A DNA stretch of 64,000 nt, taken from NCBI GenBank assembly GCA_902768105.1, contig CACXJZ010000005.1, positions 3,052 to 67,051 of the forward strand, in the 5' to 3' direction. Positions 15,557-56,047 of this stretch are shown in pieces. Below the pieces are notes generated by a model, which was not told the DNA's origin, searched no databases, and saw only the letters and a list, made by a program, of their open reading frames with translations. The stretch comes from an uncultured Prevotellaceae bacterium. Its GTDB lineage: Bacteria; Bacteroidota; Bacteroidia; Bacteroidales; Bacteroidaceae. The position numbers and the translations under genes are program-made. The number at the start of each line of letters is the position of its first letter. Within the stretch, counting starts at the first letter, position 1.

Positions 15557-17530
15557 ATGATTGACAGAGCAACAGTCGATAGGATAATGGATGCCACCAA
15601 CATTGTTGAGGTGGTAAGCGACTTCGTTAACTTACGCAAGGCGGGAGTTAACTACAAGGGGCTGTGTCCGTTCCATGATGACAAGACGCCATCGTTCATG
15701 GTCTCACCAGCCAAGCAGATATGCAAGTGCTTCGCCTGTGGAAAGGGCGGAACGGCCATCAATTTTCTCATGGAACACGAGCAGATTACCTATGTGGAGG
15801 CATTGCGTTGGCTGGCCCGCAAGTACAATATTGAGATTGAGGAGCGCGAACTGACCGACGAGGAGCGCCGCCAGCAGTCAGAGCGTGAGTCCATGTACAT
15901 TGTCAGCGAATGGGCCAAGGACTGGTTTCACCATATTCTGAAGGAAGACCCTGACGGCATTGCTATCGGCAAACAGTATTTCCGCAGCCGAGGCATCCGC
16001 GACGACATTATTGAGAAGTTCCAGCTGGGCTTCGCGCCTAACAAACGTACGGCACTCTCGGAGGCTGCACGCGAAAAAGGCTACCAGCCAGAGTTCCTGG
16101 TAAAGACCGGACTGTGCTATCTGCGTGAAGCTAATAACCAAATAATTGACCGCTTCAGCGGTCGTGCCATCTTTCCATGGCTGAACGTCAGCGGCAAGGT
16201 GGTGGCTTTCGGCGGACGTGTGCTCGACGCACGGACAAAGGGCGTGCAACAGAAATACGTCAACTCGCCCGACTCAGACATCTACCACAAGGAGCGCGAG
16301 CTCTATGGCATCTTTCAGGCCAAGCGTGCCATAGCCAAAGAAGACTGCGTCTATATGGTCGAGGGCTATACCGACGTCATAGCCATGCACCAATGCGGAC
16401 TGGAGAACGTAGTAGCCAACTCGGGTACGGCGCTCTCCGTCTATCAGATACGCCTGCTACATCGCTTCACCCAGAACATTGTATTGCTCTACGATGGTGA
16501 CGAGGCCGGCATCCATGCTGCCATGCGCGGAACCGACATGCTACTCCAGGAAGGTATGAACATCAAGGTGCTCGTGCTACCCGACGGTGACGACCCCGAT
16601 TCGTTCAGCCGCAAGCATACTGCCGAGGAGTTCAAGACTTACATTCTGGAGCATCAGAAAGACTTTATACAGTTCAAAACCGACCTCATGCTACAGGGTG
16701 TTACCGACCCCGTGAAACGCAGCGAGGCCATCAGCAACATCGTCAAGAGTGTCAGCGTCATCCCCGACCCCATCAAGCGCGATACCTACCTGCACGATTG
16801 TGCCGTACGCTTGGGGGTTAACGAGCGGACGCTCATCAACACGATGAACAACTTTATCAGGGCGAACCGCGAAGAAAAGAGGAGAGAGGAGAGAGAAGAG
16901 AGAAGAGTGGAGAGAGAAGAAGCACCCTCCATACCCTCTCCTTTTGGAGGGGGACAGGGGGAGGCCCCCACCCCCAATGGGGGAAGGTTGGAGGGGGCTT
17001 CTCCCGTCGAAACCCTCATCATCCGTGAGGTGATACGTCATGGAGAAGAGGTGGTATTCGACAATCTGGAGACAGAGGACGGAGGGACAACGAGTCTCAC
17101 CGTAGCACAATACATTGACTACGATTTGTCACAGGACGGCATACAGCTGTCAGACGAACGCTATCGTCGCATACTTGCTGAGGCTGTCGAACACTCCAAT
17201 GAACGCGACTTCAAGGCCGAGACGTATTTCGTGCGACATCCCGACCCGCAGATTAGCCAACTGGCTGCCGACCTCGCCATGAGCCGCTATCAGCTCAGTG
17301 CCAGCATGAGCGTCCCCCAAAGGGAGGGCAGTCTGGTACGACAGATAACCCACTTGGTGCTCGACTACCGTATGAGCATCGTAGAGCAACAGCTGAAGCA
17401 TTTGCAGAACCAGTTGCGTAATGCCACCCGCGACATGGAGCACATCAAGAGCCTGATGACACAGCTCAAGCAGACACAGGAACTGCGCAACACGCTAGCC
17501 CGCAAGCTGGGCAACGATGTTATAATATAA
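15557..17530 (+). CDS. dnaG: DNA primase, with in-frame repeat insertion in the linker
   Basis: CPFH...C..C zinc finger, KYVNSP, VEGYTD and YDGDEAG TOPRIM motifs. Confidence 0.97.
   Translation: MIDRATVDRIMDATNIVEVVSDFVNLRKAGVNYKGLCPFHDDKTPSFMVSPAKQICKCFACGKGGTAINFLMEHEQITYVEALRWLARKYNIEIEERELTDEERRQQSERESMYIVSEWAKDWFHHILKEDPDGIAIGKQYFRSRGIRDDIIEKFQLGFAPNKRTALSEAAREKGYQPEFLVKTGLCYLREANNQIIDRFSGRAIFPWLNVSGKVVAFGGRVLDARTKGVQQKYVNSPDSDIYHKERELYGIFQAKRAIAKEDCVYMVEGYTDVIAMHQCGLENVVANSGTALSVYQIRLLHRFTQNIVLLYDGDEAGIHAAMRGTDMLLQEGMNIKVLVLPDGDDPDSFSRKHTAEEFKTYILEHQKDFIQFKTDLMLQGVTDPVKRSEAISNIVKSVSVIPDPIKRDTYLHDCAVRLGVNERTLINTMNNFIRANREEKRREEREERRVEREEAPSIPSPFGGGQGEAPTPNGGRLEGASPVETLIIREVIRHGEEVVFDNLETEDGGTTSLTVAQYIDYDLSQDGIQLSDERYRRILAEAVEHSNERDFKAETYFVRHPDPQISQLAADLAMSRYQLSASMSVPQREGSLVRQITHLVLDYRMSIVEQQLKHLQNQLRNATRDMEHIKSLMTQLKQTQELRNTLARKLGNDVII
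16874..16920 (+). repeat. In-frame 7-bp purine tandem repeat in dnaG
   Basis: gaaaaga ggagaga ggagaga gaagaga gaagagt ggagaga; encodes EKRREEREERRVERE. Confidence 0.85.
16921..16999 (+). mobile_element. Palindromic double-hairpin element, in frame in dnaG
   Basis: Terminal IR agcaccctcca/tggagggggct; hairpins ccctctcc-tttt-ggaggggg and ccccc-aat-ggggg. Confidence 0.8.
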
Positions 17531-17539
17531 TTTACCGAT

Positions 17540-18985
17540 TTGGCAATGCACGGACTATATGCTGTAGGTGTTGTACTCTACTGGATTATCGTGACGGTGG
17601 CCATTGTTCACGTCGTGATGGACAACCGCCAGCCAGCCAAGACCATGGCCTGGGCACTGGTCATCTTCTTCGTGCCCATTGTCGGCATCGTGTTCTACCT
17701 GTTCTTTGGCATCAACACCCGCAAACAACGCATGGTCAGCCAGCGGTCGCTCGACCAACTGTCGAAACGTTCCATGCTGGAGTTTGTGGAACAGCGGAGC
17801 CTTCATCTGCCCGATGACCACAAACCACTCATCGACCTGTACGTCAACCAGAACTTCTCACTACCCTTCAAGGTAGATGACATCCAGTTGCTGTGCGACG
17901 GCAAGGACTTCTTCCCTGCCCTCTTCAAGGCTATCGGCGAGGCACGCGACCATATCCACCTGGATTTTTATATTATAGAGGACGATCCTTTGGGCCGACT
18001 CATCAGCGATATGCTCATCGACCGTGCCCGCGAAGGAGTTGAAGTACGACTGATTTACGATGACGTGGGCTGCTGGAACGTCCGTCACCGTTTCTTCGAG
18101 CGCATGCGCGAGGAAGGCATCGAGGTAGTACCTTTCCTACCTGTACGCTTCCCGTCGTTTGCCAACAAGGTAAACTACCGCAACCACCGCAAGATCTGTG
18201 TCATCGACGGTCGTGTGGGATTCATTGGAGGAATGAATCTTGCACTGCGCTACTGGCAAGGAACAGAAACACAATCTTGGCGCGACACCATGATTCGCGT
18301 GGAAGGCAGCGTGGTCTATGCCCTGCAACGCGCATTCCTCATTGACTGGTACTTCGTTGACCGGACGCTCATCTCACACCGCAAATACTATCCACCCTCC
18401 ACTCCCCCCTCTTTCGGAGGGGACGGGGGAGGTTCCCCCATCGCTCAGATTGTCACCAGCAGTCCGGCATCGCCCTATCCTGAAATCATGCAAGGCTACG
18501 TGCATGTTATCTCCACAGCCAAGAAGAGTATCCTGATGGAGACACCATACTTCCTGCCTACTGAGCCCGTATTGTTTGCGCTGAAGACGGCAGCCCTGGG
18601 AGGCATCGACGTGCGCCTCATCGTACCCATGCGCAGTGATGCCCGCTTTGTGGAATGGGCAGGCCGCAGCTACCTGCGCGAGATGGCCGAGGCCGGTGCA
18701 CAGGTGTGGCTCTATCAGGACGGCTTTCTTCACTCGAAGCTCATGGTGGTTGACGACACGCTCTCCACCTGCGGTTCCACAAACATTGACTTCCGCTCGT
18801 TCGAGAACAATTTTGAGAGCAACATCTTCATCTACGACGAAGAGACAGCCTCCCGCTTCCGCGAAGTGTTCATTGCCGACCAGCAGCATGCCCGCCTGCT
18901 CAACGACATGCCCCACCGCATGCGCCCGTCCTTCCTCAAGCGCCTGCTGGAAAGCCTTGCCCGGCTACTGGCTCCGCTGCTCTGA
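17540..18985 (+). CDS. cls: Cardiolipin synthase
   Basis: Two N-terminal TMs, two HKD motifs (HRKICVID, HSKLMVVD). Confidence 0.95.
   Translation: MAMHGLYAVGVVLYWIIVTVAIVHVVMDNRQPAKTMAWALVIFFVPIVGIVFYLFFGINTRKQRMVSQRSLDQLSKRSMLEFVEQRSLHLPDDHKPLIDLYVNQNFSLPFKVDDIQLLCDGKDFFPALFKAIGEARDHIHLDFYIIEDDPLGRLISDMLIDRAREGVEVRLIYDDVGCWNVRHRFFERMREEGIEVVPFLPVRFPSFANKVNYRNHRKICVIDGRVGFIGGMNLALRYWQGTETQSWRDTMIRVEGSVVYALQRAFLIDWYFVDRTLISHRKYYPPSTPPSFGGDGGGSPIAQIVTSSPASPYPEIMQGYVHVISTAKKSILMETPYFLPTEPVLFALKTAALGGIDVRLIVPMRSDARFVEWAGRSYLREMAEAGAQVWLYQDGFLHSKLMVVDDTLSTCGSTNIDFRSFENNFESNIFIYDEETASRFREVFIADQQHARLLNDMPHRMRPSFLKRLLESLARLLAPLL
18395..18432 (+). mobile_element. Half palindromic element, in frame in the cls inter-domain linker
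   Basis: ccctccactcccccctctttcggaggggacgggggagg, similar to dnaG 16925-16964; encodes PSTPPSFGGDGG. Confidence 0.75.
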
Positions 18986-18986
18986 C

Positions 18987-21900
18987 TTAGCCATTAGCCT
19001 TTGCCGTGGTACACAGATTCACCAGATAGATAATGCTCATATACGGAATGCCCGTGTTGGCTTCCAGACCAATCTCGCAGGTGCGACTATTCGAGTAGCC
19101 CACTTCAATATGGTTTTTCTCTATCTGTGGACGGAGTTTCCGTAGTGCATAACGGTTCATCTCGGGGAAAGTAAAGCCCCTGTCACCGGCAAAGCCGCAA
19201 CATCCGACGCCCTCAGGCAGATAAACATTGTTGGAACAGAGCTTTGCCAATGCTATCATATCCTTGTCAACACCCATCTGACGTGTCGAACAGGTCAGGT
19301 GCAGGGCGATATGTTTATCTGTTGGATGGAAGTCCAGGCGGTCTTTCAAGTATGTCATAATGAACTCGGCAGGCTCGTACAATTTCATCTTCTTCATCAC
19401 CTTCTTCATCCTGTGCAGACAGGGACTCTGTGCACAGAGCACCGGATACTTTCCCTGCTCCGAAGCTTTCCAGAGGGCAGCCTCCAGTTCAGCACTCTTG
19501 CGGTCGGCAATATCGAGCATACCTTTCGACTCCCATATCTGGCCGCAGCACATACGCTCCATGCCTTCAGGGAAGATGACCTCATAGCCAGCCTTTGCCA
19601 TCAGCTGAATGACCTCATCGACAAGGGCATGCTTGACCTTCGCTTCTTTCGACAGTCCCATCGTCTGGTTGATGCAGCTGGGGAAATAGACGACCTTGAG
19701 GTCGGTGTTGGGTGACGGATGCTGGCTGTTGGTGGGTAATGATTTCTCTATGATAAACTGTGTGAGGTCCGACTTCTTCGGCTGTCTCTTCTTCTTGGGC
19801 ATAGCAGTGGTCCAGAGAGGCAGACCAGCTTTGTTCATGGTGCGGCAGACGCTCGTCATCAGCGTAGGACCAAGCGTAACGTGTCCGAGATGAGCCACGT
19901 CGAGCACCACGCGCAGTCCCGACTTGATGCCAGCCATGTGGTTGGCAGCAAACTCTCCAACCTGATAGCCCAGCTTTGAGTGATTCATGTCCATCTGCCG
20001 GATGAGGTGCGTCAGTTCGCCCGTGTTGATCTTCATCGGGCACGACGTCGAACACAGTCCGTCAGTAGCACACGTCTGGTCACCATAGTATTTGTATTGT
20101 TTCTTCAACGTAGCCAATCGTACAGGATTCTCTCCAGTCTTCGTCAGATGGCGTATCTCGCGCTGTACGGCAATACGCATTCTCGACGACAGCGTCAGAC
20201 CGCACGACATACAGTTTACCTCGCAGAAACCACACTCTATGCACTTGTTGGCACGTTTCACCTGCTCAATGGTTTCCTTCGCCGTCGATAGCGTTGGGTC
20301 CATCAGATACTTTCCACCATCTGACACGCTGTCAAAATCATAGTCCAGTACGGGCAGAGGTTTCAGGCACTTGATGAAGCAGTCAGGATCGTCATTGAAG
20401 ATAACACCTTGGTTCAGAAGTCCTTCGGGGTCAAAGATCTGTTTCAGCTCCTTCATCACCTCGTATGCCTTCTCACCCCACTCGTACATCACGAACGGAG
20501 CCATGTTACGACCTGTTCCATGCTCGGCCTTCAGTGAGCCGTCGTACCCCTCAACAACCAATTTAGCCACCTCGCGCATCATCTCGGCATAGCGTGCCAC
20601 CTCATGCTCATCGGCAAAGCTTTGGTTCAGGATGAAGTGGTAGTTCCCCTCAAAAGCGTGACCATAGATGCAGGCATCATCGTACCCGTGGTCAGCAATA
20701 AGCTGCTGCAACTTCACCGTAGCCTCAGGCAGCGATTCAATGGGGAATGCCACGTCCTCAATCAGGCATGACGTGCCAACGGGACGTGTACCACCCACGC
20801 TGGGGAAGATGCCGCTACGGATAGCCCAATATTTGCCATACACCGCAGGGTCTTCGGTAAACTCCGCCGGTTGGTAAAGGCGGAACTGTCCTAGACATTC
20901 CTTGATACAGGAAATCTTCTCCAACAGCTGCTCGTGCGTCACAGCCTTCGTCTCCGTCAGGATGGCCGTTAGGTTATGATAATCGCCGGGTTCCACGCTT
21001 TCTATCCTGCCCGCATCCACATCCTTCTTGTATTGCAGGAACACAGGATCGTCAACTGAACTTAACGACTTGTAATCGAGCATCTCTGCACTCTTCACCA
21101 TCAGCTGCTCAGCGCTCATCTGCATGTCTTCACTACCAGCCTTCAGTTTCTTCATCGCCACAACAGCTTCACAGCTCTCCTTCATCGTCAGGAAATAGAC
21201 CATCGCCGAGGCCTTGAACGGATAGTCACGCAATGTACGCATGGTCACTTCCGACAGGAAAGCCAGCGTTCCCTCGCTACCCACCATCGAGTGAGCAATG
21301 ATATCGAACGGATCATCATAAGCCACCAGCGGTCGCAGGTTCAGACCTGTCACGTTCTTGATACTATACTTTTTTAATATACGCGCGCACAACTGCTCGT
21401 CATTCTTTACTTTATCACGTAGCGTCTCAATCTTGGCAATAAAGTCCGGATGGGTTTTGCGGAACTGTTCACGGCTCTCTACCGAACCGGTATCCAGAAC
21501 AGTACCGTCAGTCAGAATGATACGAGCTGAAAGTAGCATACGGTCGCTGTTGGCATGTACGCCGCAGTTCATGCCCGATGCATTATTGATGACTATGCCA
21601 CCCACCATCGCAGCACCTACTGATGCCGGGTCGGGTGGAAATACTCTTCCGTAGGGTTTAAGGATTTCATTCACCCGCGCACCTACGATGCCTGGCTGCA
21701 ACGTAATCATACTCGCATCGCCATTCAAGTTCCATTTCTCCCAATGCTTTCCTGCCACAATGAGCACCGAATCCGTACAACTCTGACCAGAGAGTGACGT
21801 GCCGGCAGCACGGAACGTAAACGGCAGCTTGTGCTTACGGCAAAGCTTGACAATACGCGATATTTCCTCTTCGCCGTCGCTGCGTACGACAACTTTTGGA

Positions 21901-22013: not shown

Positions 22014-22159
22014 AGCAGTATCCGGATTTTTAGTGATAATTTCTGGGTGTAAAGATACAAAAAGATGTTGAATATCTGAAATTTTATGGTAAAAAAGTAC
22101 GTCTGTTTAATTTTTTTTTCGTATATTTGCCCCAGAAACAACAAGCAACTAAGAATCCT

Positions 22160-23764: not shown

Positions 23765-23794
23765 GGGTAAAAAAGTAAAAAGGTAAAAAAGCAA
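23763..23794. repeat. 4 x 8-bp tandem repeat (AARRGYAA)
   Basis: aagggtaa aaaagtaa aaaggtaa aaaagcaa. Confidence 0.8.
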
Positions 23795-23798
23795 ATAA

Positions 23799-24536
23799 AT
23801 GAAGATAGGATTATTCATTCCCTGTTATGTCGATGCAGTATATCCTGAGGTAGGCGTTGCCACTTACAGACTGCTATGCCACTTGGGACTCGATGTAGAG
23901 TATCCTGAAAATCAGACTTGCTGCGGCCAGCCTATGGCCAATGCAGGTTTCGAGAGTCAGGCCGTGCCACTGGCAACCAAGTTCGAGGAGAAGTTCAAGG
24001 GCTTCGATTACGTGGTGGCGCCGTCTGTCAGTTGTACTGCCTTCATCCGCATCAACTACCCGCGCCTGCTTCATGGCAAGACGGAGTGCGAGACGGCAAA
24101 GAAATGCATGGATGTGGTGGAGTTCCTGCACGACGTGGTGAAGGTCAACCAACCGCTCGGCACCTTCCCCCACAAGGTCAGCTTGCACAACTCCTGTCAT
24201 GGTGTACGCGAGTTAGGGCTGTCGTCGCCCAGTGAAATGAACGTTCCCAAGTTCAACAAAATCAAGAACTTGCTGCAGTTAGTCGAGGGCATTGAGGTGG
24301 TAGAGCCTGAGCGTCCTGACGAGTGTTGCGGCTTCGGAGGCATGTTCTCTGTGGAGGAAACGGCCATCAGCGCCCAAATGGGCCTCGACAAGGTAGAGCG
24401 TCACATCCAGACGGGTGCCGAGTACATTACCGGCCCTGACTGCTCGTGCCTGATGCACATGGCTGGTGTTGCCCGTAAGCAAGGCCTGAAGATTGAGTTC
24501 AAGCACGTAGTGGAGATTCTGGCCGCAGGACTGTAA
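23799..24536 (+). CDS. lutA: Lactate utilisation protein A (LldE)
   Basis: QTCCGQP, HNSCH, ECCGFGG, DCSCLMH. Confidence 0.9.
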   Translation: MKIGLFIPCYVDAVYPEVGVATYRLLCHLGLDVEYPENQTCCGQPMANAGFESQAVPLATKFEEKFKGFDYVVAPSVSCTAFIRINYPRLLHGKTECETAKKCMDVVEFLHDVVKVNQPLGTFPHKVSLHNSCHGVRELGLSSPSEMNVPKFNKIKNLLQLVEGIEVVEPERPDECCGFGGMFSVEETAISAQMGLDKVERHIQTGAEYITGPDCSCLMHMAGVARKQGLKIEFKHVVEILAAGL

Positions 24537-24560
24537 ATTGTAAATTGTTAAATTGTAAAT
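24534..24560. repeat. (TAAATTG)n tandem repeat overlapping the lutA stop
   Basis: taaattg taaattg t taaattg taaat. Confidence 0.8.
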
Positions 24561-24564
24561 ATCA

Positions 24565-25935: not shown

Positions 25936-26519
25936 GTAGCAAAGAAGATATACTGAAGAGGCTTCGCGAAAACGTACGCGAGAAGTACGATATGCCGTCA
26001 CTCGATGACATCAACGCCGTCAACTACCCCGACCCGCTGGAGCAGTTTATGAAGATGAGCGAGAGCGTGGGTGGACGGGTGTTGCTGGTGGGCAGAGACC
26101 ATGACGTCAACGTACTCATTCGCAAGCTGTTTCCTGATGCCAAGGAAATTGCCTCGAACTTGCCGGAAATATGCATCAACACACGCAACCCAGACACCGT
26201 GGCAGAGGCAAGCGACCTCAACGGCACCGACATAGGCATCGTACGTGGTATGTTCGGTGTGGCAGAGAACGGCTGCGTCTGGGTGCCTCAGCAGATGAAG
26301 GAGCGTGCCGTCTGCTTCATCTCAGAGCACCTCGTCATCCTGCTGCCGAAAAGCGAGATTGTCAACAACATGCACGAGGCCTATAGGCAAATTGAGTTCA
26401 ACGACTACGGCTACGGCACGTTCATCAGCGGACCGTCGAAGACGGCCGACATTGCCCAGGTGCTGGTGATGGGTGCCCAAGCTGCACGCAGCGTTACGGT
26501 GCTACTGATGCCGGAATAA
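25932..26519 (+). CDS. lutC: Lactate utilisation protein C (LUD domain, LldG)
   Basis: FISGPSKTADI; ATGA overlap with lutB. Confidence 0.9.
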   Translation: MSSKEDILKRLRENVREKYDMPSLDDINAVNYPDPLEQFMKMSESVGGRVLLVGRDHDVNVLIRKLFPDAKEIASNLPEICINTRNPDTVAEASDLNGTDIGIVRGMFGVAENGCVWVPQQMKERAVCFISEHLVILLPKSEIVNNMHEAYRQIEFNDYGYGTFISGPSKTADIAQVLVMGAQAARSVTVLLMPE

Positions 26520-26564
26520 GACCCCACCAAACCTCCCCTGTTTAGGGGAGGCTTAGGGCAGGGG
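26518..26564 (+). mobile_element. Intergenic copy of the palindromic element
   Basis: aagaccccaccaaacctcccctgtttaggggaggctt...; stem cctcccct/aggggagg; close match to reverse complement of 56012-56047. Confidence 0.8.
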
Positions 26565-26585
26565 CGCAGAAAGCAAAGAAGGTGG

Positions 26586-28223
26586 TCAACGGACCACCTT
26601 CTTTGTTATGTTGCCTTGTTTGATGATGATGACTCCCCGGGCAGAAGCGTCAACCTCGCGACCAGAAAGGTCGAAGTAACGCAGCGGAACATCGCCGTCG
26701 ACGCGGACATCCTCAATGTCCGATGTCCAGTTGGCATTGTTCTCCTTGGTCAGCGAAATATTGCTGCCGTCTATGGTCAGAATACAGCTATTGTTGTTAT
26801 CCTCGTGACAACGGATGGGCTGCCAGTCGGTCTCATCGACGTGCTTCGAGGCTGCATAGATTCTGTAGGAACCATCCGCCAAACTTGCAAAGCTAACGCC
26901 AGTGTATTGGAAATTATATCCACTGAGATATTCTACAGGACCTATATCGTCTGCATCCAACACGGTCAGCAGCTGGGTTGATAAGTTCTGGGCTAAAATT
27001 CCAACCTGACCCGTAAATGCGTTATAGTCGAAATTAAAGGCTCTGAACGAGGCATTGAGCGTTGATCCTTGCTTCTTCGTAATTATAATATCACCATCTA
27101 TTCCCCAATACGACTGATAGGGTACAATAACATCATTTTTACGGACGAGTACCATCTCCTGACCAGTAGTGTAACCATTCAGGCTAGCAATGTCGAACCA
27201 GCCGTCCTGACTGCCTTCCCACCCCCAGTTAACGTGTACCTTACCGTCCTCATCATAGCCATCGAGTACAAATTCATGACCTCCATCAGCACGTTGTGCA
27301 CCATAAAGTACGGGACAACCATCGTTCAGTTCGGCAAAAATCTTTTCCATCCATTCCTCATTGGGGAAATAGGTACGCCAATAGAAATGCATATTCTCAT
27401 TGTAGTAGAATCTTTTGCGCAGAGCATCTACAGCATCGCTTGTAAAGGCACCACTACCACTTTTGGTATATTGCATATTCACAGAATAACCACAATGCTT
27501 CATCAGCAATGCAACAGCATCTCCCTGCTCTGGAGTATAGTTGACTCCCTTATATATGGGAAGCATTTTATCCCAAGCATAAGGAGTCTTAGCCAAGTTA
27601 TCACTCAGTTTGGTCGAGACCTGACTACCTTCAGGCGTAAAATAGTAAGAAATAGTACCCTTACCTTTTTCCGGATGCTTATAGTAATACATGATCTGCG
27701 CCATAGCCGTAGCCACACAGCCCGTCACGTAGTGTACCTCTTTCTTCCCATCTTGATAGGTCGGTGTCATATTGTTATAGGGTGTACCCTGCCCCCATTG
27801 TGTCTCCATCAAGAATTCAACGCTGGAAGGGAAAAGCGGACCTTCCGGACGTACGGTTTCCATCTTAAGACCACGCTCTTTATTATATTCAAGCTGCTTA
27901 TTGATAGTTTCAAGCCACCACAGGTAACCAGGAGCAACATTTTCTACATCATACTCGTTGGTTGAATAGCCCAACACTGCCTCAAACTCGTCATCATTGG
28001 CAATGACAGCAAACCCCACTTTTCCACCAATAACGGTCAGTTGCGTGCAACGCTGAATAACATCCAACGAGGCATTGGCAATAGCACGTCGTTGCTGACC
28101 ACTTTCAGCATGATTTTGTAACGTCTGCCGAGCAGCCAGCATAAGCTGCTCCAGCGTACGATCCTTAGCAGAAACAGACAATGTGACAGCTAAAAGGATA
28201 AGAAATAGAGATAGCTTTTTCAT
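26586..28223 (-). CDS. C10 (streptopain/interpain-like) cysteine peptidase with T9SS C-terminal domain
   Basis: Signal peptide, prodomain, WGQGTPYN, GCVATAMAQ, GHEFVLDGY, HVNWGW; C-terminus YFDLSGR...KKVVR. Confidence 0.9.
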   Translation of the reverse strand: MKKLSLFLILLAVTLSVSAKDRTLEQLMLAARQTLQNHAESGQQRRAIANASLDVIQRCTQLTVIGGKVGFAVIANDDEFEAVLGYSTNEYDVENVAPGYLWWLETINKQLEYNKERGLKMETVRPEGPLFPSSVEFLMETQWGQGTPYNNMTPTYQDGKKEVHYVTGCVATAMAQIMYYYKHPEKGKGTISYYFTPEGSQVSTKLSDNLAKTPYAWDKMLPIYKGVNYTPEQGDAVALLMKHCGYSVNMQYTKSGSGAFTSDAVDALRKRFYYNENMHFYWRTYFPNEEWMEKIFAELNDGCPVLYGAQRADGGHEFVLDGYDEDGKVHVNWGWEGSQDGWFDIASLNGYTTGQEMVLVRKNDVIVPYQSYWGIDGDIIITKKQGSTLNASFRAFNFDYNAFTGQVGILAQNLSTQLLTVLDADDIGPVEYLSGYNFQYTGVSFASLADGSYRIYAASKHVDETDWQPIRCHEDNNNSCILTIDGSNISLTKENNANWTSDIEDVRVDGDVPLRYFDLSGREVDASARGVIIIKQGNITKKVVR

Positions 28224-37570: not shown

Positions 37571-40021
37571 TTAATCCTGGAAATAAACTTTTTTGACACG
37601 GCCGCTCACAGCGGTAAGCACCTCGTAAGGTATAGTGTCGAGCACATCGCTGAGCACGCTGACGGGCAGGTTGCGGCCAAAAATCTCCACCATGTCGCCC
37701 TCATGGACGTCAGGGATGTCGGTAACGTCAATCATCGCCACATCCATACAGATATTGCCCACATAAGGAGCCTTATGGCCATTGACGAGACAATAGCAGG
37801 CCCCGCGTCCCAGGTGGCGATTCAGTCCGTCGGCATAACCTATGGGGATAGCGGCAATGATGCTGTCGCGTGTCAGCACACCCTTACGCGAGTAGCCCAC
37901 GGTCTCTTCCTTCGGCACGTGGCGCAACTGTAGGATGGTGGTCTTGAGGGTACTGACGCATTGTAATGGCGACTGGTGACTGGTGAGTGGTGAAGAGTAA
38001 GGATCGATCCCGTAGAGTCCCAATCCTAGACGACACATGTCGAGCTGACGCTCGGGGAAGTGCTCGATGCCTGCAGAGTTGTCCATATGGCGCAGGATGT
38101 GGTGGCTGAAGGCTGACTGCAGTTGTTCGCTGCCCTTCAGGAACCGTTCGAACTGCAGGCGTGAGAAGTTGTCAAAGTCGTCGCTGTCGCTACCCACGAA
38201 ATGCGAAAAGACGGAGCGTGGGATGATAGCATTCTGGTGCTTCAGGCGGCTGATGAGCTCATCCATGTCCGTCTCGGGGTTGAAGCCCAAACGATGCATG
38301 CCCGTATCGAGTTTGATGTGCACAGGCCAATCAGTGATACCCTCCTTCTCAGCAGCACGGATGAGTGCATCCATCAGTCGGAAGGAATAGACTTCGGGCT
38401 CCAACTCATAGCCGAACATCGTCTTGAAGGCCGTCATCTCGGGGTTCATGATGATGATGTTCTGCGTGATGCCGTTGCGACGTAGTTCCACGCCCTCGTC
38501 AGCTACAGCCACAGCGAGATAATCGACGCGATGGTCCTGTAACGTCTTAGCCACCTCGACAGCTCCGGCACCGTAGGCGTCGGCTTTCACCATGCATACC
38601 AGCTTGGTTTCCGGTTTCAAGAACGAACGGAAGTAGTTGAGGTTATCGACAACAGCATTGAGGTTTACCTCGAGAATGGTCTCGTGAACCTTCTGCTCAA
38701 GTTGCTCTGTGATGCGGTCGAAACCAAACTGACGGGCTCCCTTGATGAGGATAACCTCGTCGTGCAGGCTGCGGAAAGCCTCGCTGGCAAGGAAAGCCTC
38801 AGTATCGGCGAAGAAAGATTTTTCACCTACGGAGAAAGTCGATTGGTGGGTACTGATGCGAGGACCTATTCCGATGAGTTTGCTGACGCCGCGCTTCACG
38901 CAGAGATTATTCACTTCCTTGTACAATTCCTCGTCACTCATGCCACTCTGCTGAATATCAGAAAGGATGAGCACCCCTCCTAATCTTCCCGAAGGAGAGG
39001 AATCTGACTCCTCTCCTTTGGAGGGGCTGAGGGAAGTTCTCCGTGCCATGAAATCGAGCGCAATAGCAAGCGAGTTGATGTCGGAGTTATAGGAGTCGTT
39101 AATGAGCGTACAGCCGTGCTGTCCCTCCTTAACCTCAAGACGCATGGCGACAGGCTCCAGACGTGCCATCCGCTCACGCAGCTGTTCAGGTGTTACGCCC
39201 AAATAGAGCGCTGTGGCAGCAACAGCCAACGAACACTCTATCGAGGCCTCGTCGATGAAAGGCAACTCATACATCTCCACCATATCCTTGTGCCAGCCAA
39301 TCTTCTCACCCTTGAAACCGCTGCGACGCACACAACGGCTGACAAGGTCATCGTCGGCATTATAAATAATGACCTGAGCATCGTGGAACAGTTGCAGTTT
39401 CTCCATGCACTTCTCCTCCAGCGAACGGAAATTCTCCTGGTGGGGTGCTCCTATAGACGTCAGCACACCAATAGTAGGCTGGATGATGTCGGCCAGTAAA
39501 GGCATCTCTCCCGGCTGACTGATGCCTGCCTCGATGAGCGCCACGTCAGTCTGCTCGTTGAGCAGCCATACTGATAGAGGTACACCTATCTGCGAGTTAT
39601 AGCTCTTGGGCGAGCGAGTCACGTTATGGTCAGGTGACAGAACCTGATAGAGCCACTCCTTGACCATCGTCTTACCGTTAGAGCCCGTGATACCCACCAC
39701 GGGAATGTCGAACTCGTCACGATGGCGCTCCGCCAGTCGTTGCAGGGCCTCTAATGGTGAGGGCACAACGAGGAAGTTAGCACCCTCATGGTCCCCTAAC
39801 TTAGCGGACTTAGAAACCACAAAATTCCTCACGCCACGCCGATAAAGGTCGGCAATATATTTATGACCGTCGTTGCGGGCGGTCTTCAGTGCAAAAAACA
39901 ATGTTTCCTCAGGGAAACAAAGTGAGCGGCTGTCGGTAAGCAGCCAACTTATCTGTGCGTCGGCAGTGCCGATGCGTCGTGCTCCAATGAGCGTCGTAAT
40001 TTTTTCTATTGAGTAATTCAT
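37571..40021 (-). CDS. alr: Bifunctional MurF ligase / alanine racemase
   Basis: GITGSNGKT, INDSYNSD (MurF); MVKADAYGAG, HIKLDTGMHRLG, GNICMD (Alr). Confidence 0.93.
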   Translation of the reverse strand: MNYSIEKITTLIGARRIGTADAQISWLLTDSRSLCFPEETLFFALKTARNDGHKYIADLYRRGVRNFVVSKSAKLGDHEGANFLVVPSPLEALQRLAERHRDEFDIPVVGITGSNGKTMVKEWLYQVLSPDHNVTRSPKSYNSQIGVPLSVWLLNEQTDVALIEAGISQPGEMPLLADIIQPTIGVLTSIGAPHQENFRSLEEKCMEKLQLFHDAQVIIYNADDDLVSRCVRRSGFKGEKIGWHKDMVEMYELPFIDEASIECSLAVAATALYLGVTPEQLRERMARLEPVAMRLEVKEGQHGCTLINDSYNSDINSLAIALDFMARRTSLSPSKGEESDSSPSGRLGGVLILSDIQQSGMSDEELYKEVNNLCVKRGVSKLIGIGPRISTHQSTFSVGEKSFFADTEAFLASEAFRSLHDEVILIKGARQFGFDRITEQLEQKVHETILEVNLNAVVDNLNYFRSFLKPETKLVCMVKADAYGAGAVEVAKTLQDHRVDYLAVAVADEGVELRRNGITQNIIIMNPEMTAFKTMFGYELEPEVYSFRLMDALIRAAEKEGITDWPVHIKLDTGMHRLGFNPETDMDELISRLKHQNAIIPRSVFSHFVGSDSDDFDNFSRLQFERFLKGSEQLQSAFSHHILRHMDNSAGIEHFPERQLDMCRLGLGLYGIDPYSSPLTSHQSPLQCVSTLKTTILQLRHVPKEETVGYSRKGVLTRDSIIAAIPIGYADGLNRHLGRGACYCLVNGHKAPYVGNICMDVAMIDVTDIPDVHEGDMVEIFGRNLPVSVLSDVLDTIPYEVLTAVSGRVKKVYFQD
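37964..37998 (-). repeat. In-frame 7-bp tandem repeat in the Alr domain
   Basis: taatggc gactggt gactggt gagtggt gaagagt; encodes SSPLTSHQSPL. Confidence 0.8.
38973..39037 (-). mobile_element. 65-bp double-hairpin element, in frame in the MurF domain
   Basis: 46/65 ungapped identity with 55597-55661; encodes TSLSPSKGEESDSSPSGRLGG. Confidence 0.88.
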
Positions 40022-44866: not shown

Positions 44867-44971
44867 CGCTTTGCAAGCGCGAAATTACTCCGTCTCGGTA
44901 AAAAAAGAAACATGTTTCTTTGTTTTGCACTCAACTTTTCGTAATTTTGCACACTAAACAAGGAAAACTAT

Positions 44972-46113: not shown

Positions 46114-46129
46114 CTACTCTCTTTAACCT

Positions 46130-47932: not shown

Positions 47933-48076
47933 CTTTGTTTTATTTAAATTGGGTGCAAAGGTACGAATAAGTAAGCAAAATACAAAAAGAAAAGCCCTTT
48001 TTTCTTTTTTATTGTCGAACGAAAGTACCTTCAACGAAGGTCAGAGGTACAAATAAGTGAGCGGATAACCAAATTT

Positions 48077-49300: not shown

Positions 49301-49472
49301 ATTTGCAAAGGTAGCGTCCTTTTCACATTCAACAAAGAATTCTCTCTTAATTATAATATTAATTAACAGAACGCAAAGGCTATCATGTACCTTTTGTATT
49401 TCTTTTTAGGCAAATAATTTGCAACGCATAAATTTTCTTTGTACCTTTGCGAAGTATTTATCTTTTCAAACA

Positions 49473-50774
49473 ATGGAACTAAACCGCGAATACTCAAATA
49501 AGGAATACAAGAGACTGGGCGACAGAATCAGAAGCAACCCCAAGGAGGTTGCCGAGGACGACCTCGTCATGTTGCAGACGCTCAGGATGAGCTATAAGGA
49601 GCCACTGGCCGTCATCTTCAAGTCGATAGAGAAGATGGCTCACAAGGTGGATGAGAACTGCATCTGCACCTATCGCGTGAAGCGAATAGAGTCCATCATC
49701 AGCAAGCTGCTGCGCTACCCGGAGATGCAGGTGAACAGGGCAGAGGACATTGCCGGCTGTCGCTGTATCATGTCATCGACCGAAAAGGTATATGAGCTGT
49801 ATAACCGTCTGATGAAGAACGAAGACAAACTGCCTTTCGTCATCAAGGGCACTATTCACGACTACATACAGGAGCCCAAGGAGAGCGGTTACCGCTCCAT
49901 CCACATCAATGCCGTGCTGAAGGACGGCGACAACCGCCGTATAGAGATTCAGCTGAGAGGGCTGGAGCATCACAACTGGGCCACACTGGTAGAAATTACC
50001 GACCTACTGTTTAAGACCAGACTGAAGGAACACGGTGCGAAGACCAACAAGGACCTGTATGAGTTTCACCGCCTGCTCTCGCTGCCTGAGGAGAGCCTGA
50101 CAAAGAAGGAAAAGTATTTCTTTGCCGATACCGTCATCAAATACCACTATATTGAGACCATCGGCGAGGTATTTGCACGTAACTACTTGGACGTCAGAAA
50201 GCAATGGAACAAACTAAAGCTGCAGCGCAACCAATTTTTCCTGATATCGACAGGCAGCGATGGTATTCCTGACTTCATGGGGTTTCTCTACTTCGAAGAG
50301 GCAGAACGTGCCTATTTTGAGAGGTTCGTCAACAACGAGGAGAACCGCAACATTGTGCTCACCCACTTGAAAGAGGCCAACTTCACAAAAATCAGCGTGG
50401 CGTACTCCAATTATTTCCTCACGTTCAACAATACACTCGTCAAGGTGCTCGTATTCTTGTCGGATGCCGTCACCAACGCCTATAAGCAGCACAAGGTAGC
50501 CCTTTTCGACCAGTATTACCAGTGTTTCCTCGACATTATTGCATTCTGGATAGAGAAGCAGCTGTTAGAAACAGACTCCTTCAACAAGGATAACATTGCC
50601 CGAAACTCACGCCTGCTGCGAACGGAATGGACCAACTCCATTACGGACGGCATCAATGCCATCAACTACATCATGGATAAGATGCACAAGAAACTGACTT
50701 TCGATCCGCTTCACATAGTACCTTACTACCACATGAAGCGGAAACAAAAGCTGTTCAAACAGAAATACCAGTAA
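49473..50774 (+). CDS. RelA/SpoT-domain protein, CapRel-like fused toxSAS candidate
   Basis: RVKRIESIISK, DIAGCR, GYRSIH, EIQLR, HNWATLVE; C-terminal AYSNYF (YxxY). Confidence 0.8.
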   Translation: MELNREYSNKEYKRLGDRIRSNPKEVAEDDLVMLQTLRMSYKEPLAVIFKSIEKMAHKVDENCICTYRVKRIESIISKLLRYPEMQVNRAEDIAGCRCIMSSTEKVYELYNRLMKNEDKLPFVIKGTIHDYIQEPKESGYRSIHINAVLKDGDNRRIEIQLRGLEHHNWATLVEITDLLFKTRLKEHGAKTNKDLYEFHRLLSLPEESLTKKEKYFFADTVIKYHYIETIGEVFARNYLDVRKQWNKLKLQRNQFFLISTGSDGIPDFMGFLYFEEAERAYFERFVNNEENRNIVLTHLKEANFTKISVAYSNYFLTFNNTLVKVLVFLSDAVTNAYKQHKVALFDQYYQCFLDIIAFWIEKQLLETDSFNKDNIARNSRLLRTEWTNSITDGINAINYIMDKMHKKLTFDPLHIVPYYHMKRKQKLFKQKYQ

Positions 50775-50779
50775 TCGGA

Positions 50780-51043
50780 CTACACGCGTTTCAGCGAACG
50801 ACGGTAGGACATGGCAAACCAGATGCAGAGGGCCAAGGCGAGGAATACAACGAAGAGACCTGCATAGAGCATGGTCATATCATCTCCGCCAGAGGCAACG
50901 CCTGCCACGAAGTCCTGTGCGGCAGCCGTATCTGCGGTGTCGGGTTTGGCTACAGGGGGATAGACGGCACGCACAGTGTCGTACTTGATGATTCGCTCAT
51001 GGGGATAAGGAGCAATGTCCAGTAATAAATGTTGTAACATCAT
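50780..51043 (-). CDS. Small protein with C-terminal TM anchor
   Basis: 87-aa ORF, hydrophobic C-terminal helix and basic tail; co-oriented with the upstream gene. Confidence 0.6.
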   Translation of the reverse strand: MMLQHLLLDIAPYPHERIIKYDTVRAVYPPVAKPDTADTAAAQDFVAGVASGGDDMTMLYAGLFVVFLALALCIWFAMSYRRSLKRV

Positions 51044-51063
51044 AAGACTTAACTATTTAATTG

Positions 51064-52371
51064 TTAATATATAATATACTCGTAGAGGAGCTGCACAAGC
51101 AGCCCCAGAAGGAAGCTGATGGCATTGCAGAGCAGGCCATAGACAAATGCCTGACGCCACTGACGGGCGAAGCAGAAGTACCACAGCGTCTCTATGACAA
51201 CGATGACCAGCTCGGCTATAAGCAGGAGCAACAGACTGTCGATCCAGCCAGCATAGACTAGCAGGTTGAGGGGTACATTGGTGAGGACATTGATAACGAC
51301 GGAAGCCCACAGCACATGTGAACGACGCTCGCGCAAGAACCACAACACGCCCAATTCGATGATGATAGTGGCGAGGAGGGGTAATAAGAAGATGAGTAGT
51401 GAGTGGTGAAGAGTGAGGGGCGGAAGGAGTAAGGATGTGTCGATGAAATGCAGTAGATAGGCAGGCATGAGGGCTGCAGCCAGAAGGCCGAAGGCCAGTC
51501 CTTCACGTCGCGGCAGCAGGAGATTGGCCAGCCAAAGTGTCACAGGCATGGTGCAGGTGACGAGGAAAAGACATATTAGTGAAGGAAGGATGGAAGAAGG
51601 AAGAAGGAAAGGGGCAAAAAGGACACCTGCCACAACGAGAACCATTGCCCAAACGACCCCTATCCACTTGCAGAGGAAGCCGCCAAAGGTTTTCCCTAGC
51701 ATGGACGTGAATCCCAAGAGCAGAACTACGCCCTGTGTCTTCACAATGTCTGACGTAAAGTCCTCACTAAGCCACGCACGCAAGGTGACCACGACCATGA
51801 CGAGAATAATAAGTAGCGAGAGTCCTCTGTGGTTTCCCTTTTGGGGATATAGTGTAGTTCCGCATCGGGAAGATAGGGGGCTGAAGATAGCAAAATAAGT
51901 CAAGAGAACAATGGCTAGCAGAAACGCAAAGAGTAGCCACCACGAAAAGAACACGGCTCCGACTGAAAGACCAAAGGCTCCCGTGGAAACGAACACACCC
52001 AGAGAACGTATATCGTTGCATGTACGGACAGCTACCTGCTGACCTCCCCACACATGGAACAGGGAATTACCCATACCGAGGAGGAAGGAGGAGAGAAGGA
52101 AAAAGGAGAGAAGGAAAGAGGATACGGCCAGCGTCAGCAGCAGAACGGCAGTCAGCAATGCCCAGTGCTTATGCTTCAGCCTATCGACCACGTAGCCCGT
52201 TAGAGGTTGCGTTAGGAACGCTAGGACGTTGTAAAGAATGAAGTAATTAATGAATTGCGTCGCGTCGAAAGGACACACCATGAGGTACAGACAGCATATA
52301 CACAATCCGTCAACCAGAAAATGCAGCAGAGCGCCGATTCCCACGAAGCTGTATGTCTGAACCTTATCCAT
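51064..52371 (-). CDS. MFS-like membrane protein with extra C-terminal membrane domain and several repeat insertions
   Basis: HFLVDG, LAFLTQPLTG, GMGNSLFHVWGG, GLAFGLL; C-terminal INVLTNVPLN...CNAISF. Confidence 0.7.
   Translation of the reverse strand: MDKVQTYSFVGIGALLHFLVDGLCICCLYLMVCPFDATQFINYFILYNVLAFLTQPLTGYVVDRLKHKHWALLTAVLLLTLAVSSFLLSFFLLSSFLLGMGNSLFHVWGGQQVAVRTCNDIRSLGVFVSTGAFGLSVGAVFFSWWLLFAFLLAIVLLTYFAIFSPLSSRCGTTLYPQKGNHRGLSLLIILVMVVVTLRAWLSEDFTSDIVKTQGVVLLLGFTSMLGKTFGGFLCKWIGVVWAMVLVVAGVLFAPFLLPSSILPSLICLFLVTCTMPVTLWLANLLLPRREGLAFGLLAAALMPAYLLHFIDTSLLLPPLTLHHSLLIFLLPLLATIIIELGVLWFLRERRSHVLWASVVINVLTNVPLNLLVYAGWIDSLLLLLIAELVIVVIETLWYFCFARQWRQAFVYGLLCNAISFLLGLLVQLLYEYIIY
51821..51882 (-). 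mobile_element. Degenerate double-hairpin element, in frame in the MFS central loop
   Basis: Terminal agtcctct/agggggct; inner tccc-tttt-gggga and ttccg-cat-cggga. Confidence 0.5.
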
Positions 52372-52526
52372 ATACCTATTAAATATAACGCGCGATAGGA
52401 CCGTTTATTGCATCCTTTGACGTGCCATTTCGGCAGAACATACTGACGTTTTGTCGCTATCCAGACATTAGGCACTACTTTTGAAGGGTAGAAAGTAAAA
52501 AAACAATAAAAAGAAAGGAGACTATT

Positions 52527-55088
52527 ATGACATCAGACAAACTGACCATCAAGGCGCAGGAAGCCGTACAGGAGGCGGTGAACACTGCGCAGCGAGCCCA
52601 GCAGCAGACCATAGAACCGGTACACCTGCTGAAGGGAATCATGGAGAACGGTAAAGACGTAACAAACTTCATTTTCCAGAAACTAGGCGTCAACGGCCAG
52701 CAAATCAGTCTGTTGCTTGACCAAGAGCTGCAGCACCTGCCACGTGTTCAGGGCGGACAGCCGTACCTATCGAGCGACAGCAACAACGTGCTACTGAAAG
52801 CCGAGGACATTTCGAAGCAGATGGGTGACGAGTTCATCAGCATTGAACCGCTGCTGCTGGCATTGCTGACGGTGAATAGCACCGCCTCGCGCATCATGAA
52901 AGATGCCGGCTGTACAGAGAAAGACATGCGTGCAGCCATTCAGGAGTTGCGACAGGGACAGAAAGTGCAGTCGCAGAGTGGCGACGAGAACTTCCAGGCA
53001 CTCGACAAGTACGCCAAAAACCTTGTGGATTTGGCACGCAGCGGCAAACTGGACCCCGTCATCGGACGTGACGACGAGATACGTCGGCTGCTACAGATTC
53101 TCTCACGCCGCACGAAAAACAACCCTATACTGATAGGCGAACCAGGTACAGGTAAGACCGCCATCGTTGAGGGGCTGGCACAGCGTATCGTCAGGGGCGA
53201 CGTGCCTGAAAACCTGAAGAACAAACGGCTGTTCTCACTCGACATGGGTGCACTGGTGGCTGGAGCGAAGTACAAGGGAGAGTTTGAGGAGCGTCTGAAG
53301 GGCGTCATCAACGAGGTGACGAAAGCTGAGGGGCGCATCATCCTCTTCATCGACGAGATTCACACGCTGGTGGGTGCTGGCGGTGGAGAGGGGGCTATGG
53401 ATGCAGCCAACATCTTGAAGCCTGCACTGGCACGTGGTGAGCTACGTGCTATAGGTGCCACGACTCTGAACGAGTACCAGAAATACTTCGAGAAAGACAA
53501 GGCTCTGGAACGTCGATTCCAGACGGTCATGGTGGATGAGCCCGACGAACTGTCGGCTATCAGTATCCTGCGTGGTCTGAAGGAACGTTACGAGAACCAC
53601 CACAAGGTACGTATCCAAGACGATGCCTGTATTGCTGCCGTGCAACTGTCGGAGCGTTACATCAGTGAGCGTTTCCTACCTGATAAAGCCATCGACCTGA
53701 TGGATGAGGCAGCCGCTAAATTACGTATGGAGCGCGACAGCGTGCCTGAGGAACTGGACGAGATTACACGTCGTCTGGCTCAACTCGAGATAGAACGCGA
53801 GAGCATCAAGCGAGAGACTGGAGACTCTGGAAACACAGGACATTCCGGAAAGCTCACAGAACTGGACAAGGAGATAGCAGAGCTCCGCGAACAGGAGCAA
53901 CAGTTCCGTGCCAAGTGGGAAGGCGAGCGCCAGTTGGTAAACAAGATACAGCAGGACAAGCAGGAAATGGAAAGCCTGAAGTATGAGGCTGAGCGTGCCG
54001 AACGCGAGGGCGACTACGGCCGTGTAGCCGAAATACGCTATTCGAAACTGAAGGCCTTAGAGGATGACATTGAGAGCCTCACCCAAACCCTCTCCAAAAG
54101 GAGAGGGGACTCCAGCACCCCCTCCCTTTGGAGGGGGAAGGAGGGAGGCTTGGTTCGCGAAGAAGTAACTGCCGACGACATTGCCGAGGTGGTGAGCAGA
54201 TGGACAGGCATTCCCGTTAACCGTATGATGCAGAGTGAACGTGAGAAACTGCTGCACCTGGAGCAGGAACTGCACCGTCGCGTCATCGGACAGGACGAGG
54301 CCATCACGGCTGTCTCGGATGCTGTGCGCCGTTCAAGGGCCGGACTGCAAGACCCCAAGCGCCCCATTGCATCATTCATCTTCCTCGGCACTACGGGTGT
54401 GGGTAAGACGGAGCTGGCAAAGGCACTGGCCGAGTATCTGTTCAACGACGAACAGATGATGACGCGTATCGATATGAGTGAGTATCAGGAGAAGCATACC
54501 GTCAGCCGTCTGATTGGCGCACCTCCGGGTTACATCGGATACGATGAGGGCGGCCAGCTGACGGAGGCTGTGCGTCGCAAGCCTTATCAGGTGTTGCTGT
54601 TCGATGAGATTGAGAAGGCGCACCCTGACGTCTTCAACATACTCTTGCAGGTGCTCGATGACGGCCGATTGACGGACAACAAGGGACGTACAGCGAACTT
54701 CAAGAACACCATCATCATCATGACCTCGAACGCTACACGCGAACAGCTGCATACAGTCATGAGACCAGAGTTCCTGAACCGTATCGACGAAATTATCACC
54801 TTCCAGCAGCTCACGCAGCAGCAGATTGCCGACGTGGTACGCCTGCAGATGAAGCGTGTCGCCGACATGCTGGAGCCGCAAGGCATCCGACTGGAAGCCA
54901 CCGATGCTGCCATCAGCTATCTGGCACAGGAAGGTTTCGACCCCGACTTTGGTGCACGTCCTGTAAAGCGTGCCATTCAAAATCTGGTGCTCAACGAATT
55001 GTCACGAAAGATACTGGCTGACGAGATAGACCGCGACAAGCCTATCGTTATTGACGAGTTTGGCGACGGTCTGGTGTTCCGCAACTAA
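52527..55088 (+). CDS. clpB: Chaperone ClpB
   Basis: GEPGTGKT and GTTGVGKT Walker A motifs, M-domain coiled coil, [17 protein letters not shown]. Confidence 0.96.
54075..54150 (+). mobile_element. 76-bp double-hairpin element, in frame at the end of the ClpB M-domain
   Basis: Terminal IR agcctc/gaggct; ccctctcc-aaaa-ggagaggg; ccccctcc-cttt-ggaggggg. Confidence 0.88.
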
Positions 55089-55097
55089 ATCAGGAAA

Positions 55098-56000
55098 TCA
55101 GTCTTTCATCAAGGCATCTCGGCATTGCTCCATCAACCATTTGGGAGTGGAAGTGGCGCCGCAGATGCCTATTGTTTTGATGCCTTCAAGCCACGAACGG
55201 TCTATCTCGTCAGGTCCTTCGATGAGATGCGTGTTGGGGTTCACCCGTCGGCACTCGTTGTAAAGCACCTTGCCGTTACTGCTCTTACGTCCGCAGACAA
55301 AGAGGATGAGATCGTGCTTCGAAGCAAACTGACTGATGTTCGGCATACGATTAGCCACCGAGCGGCAGATGGTGTCGAAACTCTTGAACGTTGCCGTAGG
55401 AGCAATATGCTGCTGGATGTACGCTATGATACGGTGAAACTCGTCCAGCGACTTCGTGGTTTGGGAATAGAGGAAGATGTCGCGCGAATAATCCAGACGC
55501 ATGGCATCCTCAAGGCTCTCAATGACAATGGCCTGCCCCTTGGTCTGTCCCACCAAGCCAAGCACCTCGGCATGACCTTTCTTGCCGAAGATGACCACCT
55601 CTCCCGGCCTCCCCGAGGGGGAGATGCCTGGTTCCCCTCCTTCGGAGGGGCTAGGGGAGGTTTCATACTGCTTCTTAATCCTTTTTTGCAGCTGTAGCAC
55701 CACAGGACAGGTGGCATCGATAATCTCAATGTTGTTGCGACGTGCCAGCTCGTAGGTTTCTGGCGGCTCACCATGGGCACGCAGCAACACCTTGACATCA
55801 TGCAGCTGCTCCAGCTCTTCGTGGTTGATGGTGATGAGCCCCATCTTACGCAGTCGTTCACACTCCATACCATTGTGCACAATGTCGCCCAGACAGTACA
55901 GCGTCTGACCTACTGCCAGTTCCTCTTCGGCTTTCTTGATGGCGGTGGTTACGCCAAAACAGAAGCCACTACCATTGTCAATCTCTATTTTAAGTATCAT
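55098..56000 (-). CDS. ispH: 4-hydroxy-3-methylbut-2-enyl diphosphate reductase
   Basis: GFCFGV, DIVHN, RAHG, DATCPVV, SQTT, DTIC, SSN, GATSTP. Confidence 0.96.
   Translation of the reverse strand: MILKIEIDNGSGFCFGVTTAIKKAEEELAVGQTLYCLGDIVHNGMECERLRKMGLITINHEELEQLHDVKVLLRAHGEPPETYELARRNNIEIIDATCPVVLQLQKRIKKQYETSPSPSEGGEPGISPSGRPGEVVIFGKKGHAEVLGLVGQTKGQAIVIESLEDAMRLDYSRDIFLYSQTTKSLDEFHRIIAYIQQHIAPTATFKSFDTICRSVANRMPNISQFASKHDLILFVCGRKSSNGKVLYNECRRVNPNTHLIEGPDEIDRSWLEGIKTIGICGATSTPKWLMEQCRDALMKD
55597..55661 (-). mobile_element. 65-bp double-hairpin element, in frame in ispH
   Basis: ctcccc-gag-ggggag and cccctcc-ttc-ggagggg hairpins; encodes TSPSPSEGGEPGISPSGRPGE. Confidence 0.9.
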
Positions 56001-56011
56001 CTTCTATCTTA

Positions 56012-56047
56012 AAGCCGCCCCTAAACAGAGGAGGTTGGATGGGTCTT
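56012..56047 (-). mobile_element. Palindromic element supplying the last codons and stop of meaB
   Basis: aagacccatccaacctcctctgtttaggggcggctt; about 32/37 match to 26518-26554. Confidence 0.8.

Follow-up and report, generated by a model that had tools for sequence, protein, structure and literature searches.

Why do core genes of a gut bacterium carry GC-rich palindromic DNA inside their reading frames, and what placed it there? The question is raised by a window of 64,000 nucleotides from an uncultured Prevotellaceae bacterium (assembly GCA_902768105.1, contig CACXJZ010000005.1; G000:C5:3052-67051), whose matching relatives are labelled Prevotella and whose DNA is contained in sequencing runs from ruminant gut samples. 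The original prediction, made from the letters of the window, described eight stretches as copies of one C-rich/G-rich hairpin element. Each of them was found at its coordinates, the host open reading frames (ORFs) are uninterrupted, translation places the Pro/Ser/Gly-rich element peptides in frame, and the identities of the host genes (DnaG, Cls, MurF-Alr, ClpB, IspH and MeaB) are backed by Pfam. The copies belong to the BoxC/triplex repeats, and we consider these repeats to be, probably, gene-less derivatives of a cassette that has a gene for a DUF559 nuclease between two such motifs, spread by a process of nicking and overwriting.

On its purine strand, the unit opens with a pyrimidine arm, which a short loop connects to a purine arm; a second loop follows, and then a run of purines in mirror image to the purine arm. 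Judged by its sequence, it is the class II intrastrand-triplex motif named BoxC, PIT or TM (Holder et al., PMC4666352). The tail that had been described as a separate part of the element is the third strand of the triplex, and the terminal inverted repeats of the original prediction correspond to the outer ends of both third strands. Class II geometry is present in 98 of the 115 units found by profile. Perfect mirror symmetry between the third strand and the unit's own purine arm is seen in 62 of 94 units, as compared with 31 ± 4 (maximum 47 in 500) when the tails were swapped; the 62 mirrored units are not 62 independent events, because subfamilies have common ancestry. Arm and tail vary together across the subtypes.

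The unit is abundant throughout the genome. A profile was built and the genome scanned, as had been proposed, and 124 nhmmer matches at E ≤ 1 were obtained versus 0 in shuffled sequence. Hairpins of the C-arm/loop/G-arm type number 165, versus 27 when codon blocks were shuffled and 23 when the genome was reversed; class II intrastrand-triplex motifs number 155, versus 0 and 8, respectively. The merged profile and geometry calls comprise 165 units, with 121 in genes and 44 outside, in a genome that is 89% coding according to a simple gene caller. They make up at least 138 elements of 35-115 bp (111 single units, 22 outward inverted pairs and 5 tandem arrangements), 99 of which lie within 83 genes. 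Genome counts and density are floors, because the detector recovers five of the eight window copies and misses three decayed ones. The predicted density of one copy per 8-9 kb is true of the window, and the genome-wide value is at least one per 19.5 kb. In-gene units are found in both orientations (65 vs 56), and the shared DNA consensus is translated in different frames, all six frame classes occurring (the frame anchor is approximate). The spacers of paired units are unlike DUF559 DNA, and one short spacer motif is shared by just two elements.

An alignment of orthologues reveals empty sites for most of the in-gene copies that could be compared. With loop lengths measured between fixed anchors, the ClpB loop has 73 aa here versus 62 aa in 13 of 29 orthologues, the IspH loop 55 versus 39-40 aa (36 of 80), the MurF loop 53 versus 37-40 aa (16 of 29), and the Cls loop 56 versus 50-51 aa (44 of 62). 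The DnaG linker, which ranges from 62 to 132 aa among orthologues, is too variable for judging insertion. The window copies were also compared with a sister genome (G251, ~80% DNA identity, 2.17 Mb compared). The sister is empty at ispH and murF, with net gains of 45 and 48 nt for 65-nt elements, and at meaB, with a net gain of 42 nt. At cls, host codons are replaced, and the sister has the same length without the element (net gain 0). It also lacks the intergenic copy, which displays triplex geometry on both strands. The clpB loop of the sister carries a different unit of its own, and the dnaG and decayed copies are common to both genomes, the orthologous dnaG element being edited differently in the sister.

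The same comparison was extended to all in-gene elements. Dropping 37 of the 99 (29 without an orthologous site and 8 too close to a protein end) left 62, and the exclusion of one triplex call that is ordinary conserved coding sequence left 61 usable sites. The sister has no motif at 51 of them. At 34 of these 51 empty sites the net gain falls more than 6 nt below the element length; its median is +21 nt for single units and +34.5 nt for pairs, whose median length is 88 nt. The originally claimed creation of new peptide sequence is mostly not a simple addition: in the majority of cases, host residues give way to the copy. Across the ends of the 22 pairs, direct repeats are not in excess (3.14 vs 3.00 ± 0.19), and the conspecific empty site of the intergenic copy has no target duplication. 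At this site, contigs of runs X8, X11 and X13, from three studies, join position 26519 to 26579, so that 59 nt are replaced by 5 other nt.

Conspecific DNA contigs contain the in-gene copies at dnaG, cls and clpB, and the ispH copy is crossed unspliced by an RNA-library contig (such libraries can contain DNA). Another RNA-library contig, with 204 letters that do not align, starts at the clpB element. Among contigs from five runs, no empty allele of an in-gene copy turned up, in a comparison that left murF aside; such contigs show presence, not absence. The original picture of dispersed, lineage-specific and non-autonomous elements in frame in core genes is supported by the empty orthologous sites. 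Its further claim of an ongoing colonisation of genes is not, as no conspecific contig without an in-gene copy was observed and no mobiliser was found in the genome.

In predicted structures, the IspH insert is a low-confidence coil, and the first ~11 element-coded residues of ClpB are predicted to complete a helix in place of lost host residues (model pTM 0.47, modest). The IspH, Cls, MurF and ClpB loops of other species independently carry BoxC/triplex repeats, other hairpin families and 7-bp tandem repeats; these loops have the appearance of hot spots for insertion or of sites with a unique tolerance.

The original prediction had advised looking for co-occurring HUH/RAYT or DUF559-type nuclease genes with the element at their flanks, and motif proximity and co-occurrence in relatives support DUF559 as the candidate partner. 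DUF559 is the likely spreading enzyme because the same repeat brackets DUF559 genes across Bacteroidota. The family is present in 74 of 150 genus genomes and in 120 of 200 phylum genomes. After the exclusion of loci clipped by contig ends (1 of 30 in the genus, 3 of 30 in the phylum), 27 of the 29 full-length genus loci have a motif no more than 350 bp from DUF559, with motifs on both sides of the gene in 25 and an outward inverted pair in 22; the phylum loci give 24 of 27, with both sides in 19. Motif density in the genus is 35 per 10 kb near DUF559, 2.4 farther away and 0.06-0.65 in housekeeping loci. The window-derived profile likewise yields 33 matches in the 17.4 kb adjoining genus DUF559 genes, 8 in the 69.5 kb farther out and 0 in 157 kb of clpB loci. 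The left unit of the clpB copy is identical at 32 of 33 positions to a DUF559-flanking unit in locus L413. Left and right ends of the same cassette are more similar in the genus than ends of different cassettes (0.83 vs 0.66).

The DUF559 cassettes occupy many unrelated genes and spacers, and some are fused in frame with long host ORFs. The sister genome has two of them, and the orthologous sites here are without a cassette. A gene-less inverted pair with inward third strands in the present genome (G000:C3 12842-12968) is 94-97% identical to the ends of one sister cassette, L254. Across the genus, the strict motif pattern is found in 54 of 74 DUF559-positive versus 14 of 76 negative genomes, and at least ten copies occur in 15 of 74 versus 1 of 76; kin are not independent in these counts, and one or two copies per genome may be the cassette's own ends. 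Altogether, 68 of the 150 genus genomes have a strict-pattern copy and 82 have none. The DUF559 protein matches PDB entry 3hrl (E 2.8e-19) and, weakly, the mobile-intron endonuclease 3r3p (E 0.003), and FRRQH and E-DG-YH motifs are conserved in 30 genus DUF559 proteins.

A similar arrangement exists in Escherichia coli K-12, where motif no. 9 of Table 1 in Holder et al. (PMC4666352) sits 168 bp from ycjD, a DUF559 gene. The 3' end of ycjD contains a decayed hairpin, and the gene is present together with its BoxC copy (fabI-sapF) in 3378 of 5426 E. coli genomes. A clean empty site was not obtained for E. coli ycjD; two strains without it have a TetR-type gene as cargo at the same junction instead.

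These data suggest the following course of events, each enzymatic step of which is proposed from sequence comparison. The DUF559 nuclease, a Vsr-fold protein, would recognise its own hairpin or triplex end in single-stranded DNA and nick there. Host repair would then patch a copy into another place, be it of a single end, of both, or of the complete cassette, and overwrite some of the target bases. Insertions with a net length of 3n in loops, linkers or termini would pass selection in either orientation, presumably because the GC-rich unit is nearly stop-free in all frames. The present genome would have lost the nuclease, or did not assemble it, and the in-gene copies would therefore be mostly relics of earlier bursts. 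Some intergenic copies may now act as terminators.

Several observations weigh against this explanation. We know of no joining activity for the Vsr fold. Pfam detects no PF04480 (DUF559) in this genome, which is 86.5% complete, and a profile of 30 genus sequences detects no DUF559 remnant in it (best E 1.1). Its one GIY-YIG match lies in a frame of 609 aa, which we take to be UvrC-sized. The same genome has 11 strict-pattern copies all the same. Matching between cassette ends is weak phylum-wide (0.72 vs 0.65; in 6 of 19 the best match is the end's own partner), and the two cassettes of the sister have end subtypes unlike the window copies. The left end of L254 (G251:C13) is separated from the nuclease gene by ~110 bp of host promoter DNA, so cassette ends are not always one unit; this DNA is retained in the empty genome (G000:C27 9040-9300), and the host promoter seems to serve the L254 nuclease gene. 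With 20% divergence, and with repeats of the sister's own in these loops, the net-length figures are blurred, and the conspecific intergenic polymorphism may be either gain or loss. The motif also co-occurs weakly with Y1, being present in 47 of 83 Y1-positive versus 21 of 67 Y1-negative genomes. Finally, the loss of such motifs in E. coli strains is reported by Holder et al. (PMC4666352).

Other explanations have to account for the same data. Spread without a dedicated enzyme, in which the triplex or hairpin stalls replication and is copied or lost through host repair or gene conversion, with DUF559 as a resolving host enzyme or a passenger, appears unlikely to us. Replacement-type junctions without target duplication fit repair, no nuclease was found in the genome, and heptamer repeats accumulate in the same loops; moreover, Holder et al. 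tie the E. coli motif to local instability and report no mobility gene for it (PMC4666352). Such a process leaves unexplained, however, why DUF559, and not housekeeping loci, is bracketed by matched inverted pairs, why cassettes are gained or lost between sister genomes, and why a high copy number is almost restricted to DUF559-positive genomes. Mobilisation of the hairpins in trans by an HUH/Y1 transposase (RAYT- or IS200-like), as for REPINs, would make DUF559 a cargo gene and is improbable. HUH elements typically have single-stranded hairpin ends and leave no target duplication, and the weak PF01797 co-occurrence also holds within the DUF559-positive set (38 of 46 vs 16 of 28). Against it, PF01797 (Y1) was not found in the 86.5%-complete genome, at least ten copies occur in 11 of 83 Y1-positive versus 5 of 67 Y1-negative genomes, and the DUF559 effect remains in Y1-negative genomes (16 of 28 vs 5 of 39).

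We regard it as very improbable that the repeats are retained and spread mainly for a host function, as terminators, mRNA structures or flexible linkers. Among the intergenic units, 34 of 41 lie downstream of a co-oriented gene and a T-tract follows 15 of 44, and the ClpB copy is predicted to provide part of a helix. Yet most orthologous sites are without an element, a strict-pattern copy is missing from more than half of the genus genomes, the in-gene copies are found in either orientation, and for the E. coli motif Holder et al. (PMC4666352) cite neither promoter nor terminator activity. Host use reads better as a later exaptation of some copies. The original prediction named ancestral linkers, or else a lack of other copies and of empty sites, as its refutation; other copies and empty sites both exist. 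A last view takes the segments for ancestral low-complexity linkers or chance GC-rich hairpins. The sites are indeed length-variable loops in orthologues, above all the DnaG linker, and one triplex call was plain conserved coding sequence. Ancestry or chance is nevertheless refuted by the shuffles, which give 0 profile matches and 0 triplex motifs, by a DNA consensus shared across different frames, and by the empty sites in sister and conspecific DNA.

How the copies are arranged in the window is given in the table below. Coding overlap, as originally described, applies to five internal copies; the copy at meaB spans the stop codon, where it forms a tail of 8 residues, and is not internal. The predicted architecture of two inverted hairpins is realised cleanly in clpB alone and in eroded form in ispH and murF; it fails for the cls, meaB and intergenic copies, which are single units, and for dnaG, with two units in the same orientation. 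The ORF that holds the degenerate copy has no Pfam match, and the sister has a related hairpin at that site.

Features of the window (positions counted from its first letter)
Position	Strand	Feature	Basis or remark
16921..16999	+	Two triplex-motif units, same orientation, in frame, DnaG linker residues 455-481	Sequence, geometry
18390..18432	+	Single unit, in frame, in the Cls loop that separates the two PLD domains, ~residues 284-298	Pfam, geometry
26520..26578 (unit ~26520-26564)	.	Intergenic copy directly after the stop of a LUD-domain gene	Polymorphic within species
26575..26604	.	Host hairpin between convergent genes, putatively terminator-like	Intergenic copy directly upstream
38973..39037	-	Eroded inverted pair, in frame, MurF-Alr residues 329-350	Sister empty
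51821..51882	-	Decayed copy in a 435-aa hydrophobic ORF (51064-52371)	Missed by the detection models
54075..54150	+	Complete inverted pair, third strands outward, in frame, ClpB residues 517-542	6-bp terminal inverted repeat
55597..55661	-	Partly eroded inverted pair, in frame, IspH residues 114-135	Sister empty
56012..56047	-	Decayed single unit over the stop codon of meaB, where it forms a short C-terminal tail	Sister empty

Further repeats accompany these copies. A purine-only 7-bp tandem repeat (16873-16920), in frame and Arg/Glu-rich, stands immediately 5' of the dnaG element, and the sister is without it. The left hairpin of the dnaG element is apparently overwritten by another unit, and the sister's dnaG element (L061 ~5330-5440) has an unrelated 30-bp hairpin nested within its right unit. 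The ORF 51064-52371, which has an orthologue in the sister, contains more purine/pyrimidine-skewed repeats at 51581-51609 and 52089-52122. Tandem repeats of 7 and 8 bp are abundant at gene junctions (24532-24560, 6356-6386, 23767-23791) and, as 12-14-mers, genome-wide; several near-identical intergenic triplex copies have such repeats just before them. A far more abundant short motif (~47950-48060 and genome-wide, among the top 10-mers), with many matches in the sister, we take to be the Bacteroidota promoter consensus and not a mobile element. The sole Rfam match in the window is a tRNA gene at 5746-5816.

Among known systems, the REP/REPIN family comprises gene-less hairpin singles and doublets, with matching copies that flank a single small nuclease gene (RAYT). 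The Prevotella repeats share this organisation of singles and doublets with matching copies around one small nuclease gene. They differ in that the partner is a PD-(D/E)xK protein of the Vsr fold and not an HUH tyrosine transposase, in the triplex third strand, in their mostly intragenic position, and in the lack of a detectable Y1 gene in the genome. The closest counterpart is BoxC/PIT/TM, with which they have in common the pyrimidine arm, a loop of 3-6 nt, the purine arm, a short loop and a mirrored purine third strand, as well as a dispersed occurrence as singles or inverted pairs that is patchy among kin (PMC4666352). By eye, some copies differ from the E. coli sequences at few bases. By contrast, the motif is always intergenic in E. 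coli K-12, whereas most units here lie in genes and fall into several arm subtypes; the third strands point outward in 22 of 27 multi-unit elements here, whereas four of five E. coli pairs point inward (PMC4666352, Table 1). The Prevotella repeat is thus a variant and not TMECO itself, because it is located mostly in genes and not in intergenic DNA.

Rickettsia palindromic elements (RPEs) provide a second parallel, as palindromic DNA in frame in unrelated housekeeping genes and absent from orthologues (PMC10969869). RPEs are ~150 bp long and encode a conserved peptide, whereas the elements described here are shorter, lack a single conserved peptide, use both orientations and several frames, often replace host codons, and have a candidate partner enzyme (PMC10969869). 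[quoted passage not shown] Of the features of MITEs mobilised by DDE enzymes, terminal inverted repeats are present in 22 pairs only, and no target-site duplication is detectable. Kinship to RPE, REP or CIR, as far as these analogies go, would be a likeness in behaviour. The cassette protein has sequence similarity to the Vsr/DUF559/EDxHD homing-endonuclease group (PMC3424549; PDB 3hrl, 3r3p), but the cassettes have triplex motifs at their borders and are found at many unrelated sites, often as in-frame ORF fusions, where an EDxHD homing endonuclease would home from an intron to one allele.

A literature search, with subscription journals outside its coverage, returned no paper linking DUF559/YcjD/COG2852 to BoxC/triplex repeats and no description of such repeats in Prevotella genes; a 2026 review names Holder et al. 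in its reference list only. It is conceivable, and we put it forward tentatively, that the cassettes and repeats constitute an undescribed class of prokaryotic mobile element, with triple-helix ends, a 120-residue Vsr-fold nuclease as the only enzyme, nick-and-overwrite spread without duplication, and autonomous as well as gene-less forms that stand in frame in essential proteins and rewrite their loops. If true, such a class would supply the missing enzyme, YcjD, for the BoxC repeats of E. coli.

For decades, BoxC/triplex repeats have stood without an account of their origin or spread, and the in-frame inserts of RPEs without a known enzyme. The Prevotella repeats connect both puzzles and offer a testable partner in one small, easily expressed protein, of which E. 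coli K-12 has an example. In one gut bacterium, repeat DNA reshapes loops in at least 83 genes, often overwriting host codons, and this rewriting of loops by repeats bears on the origin of new protein sequence.

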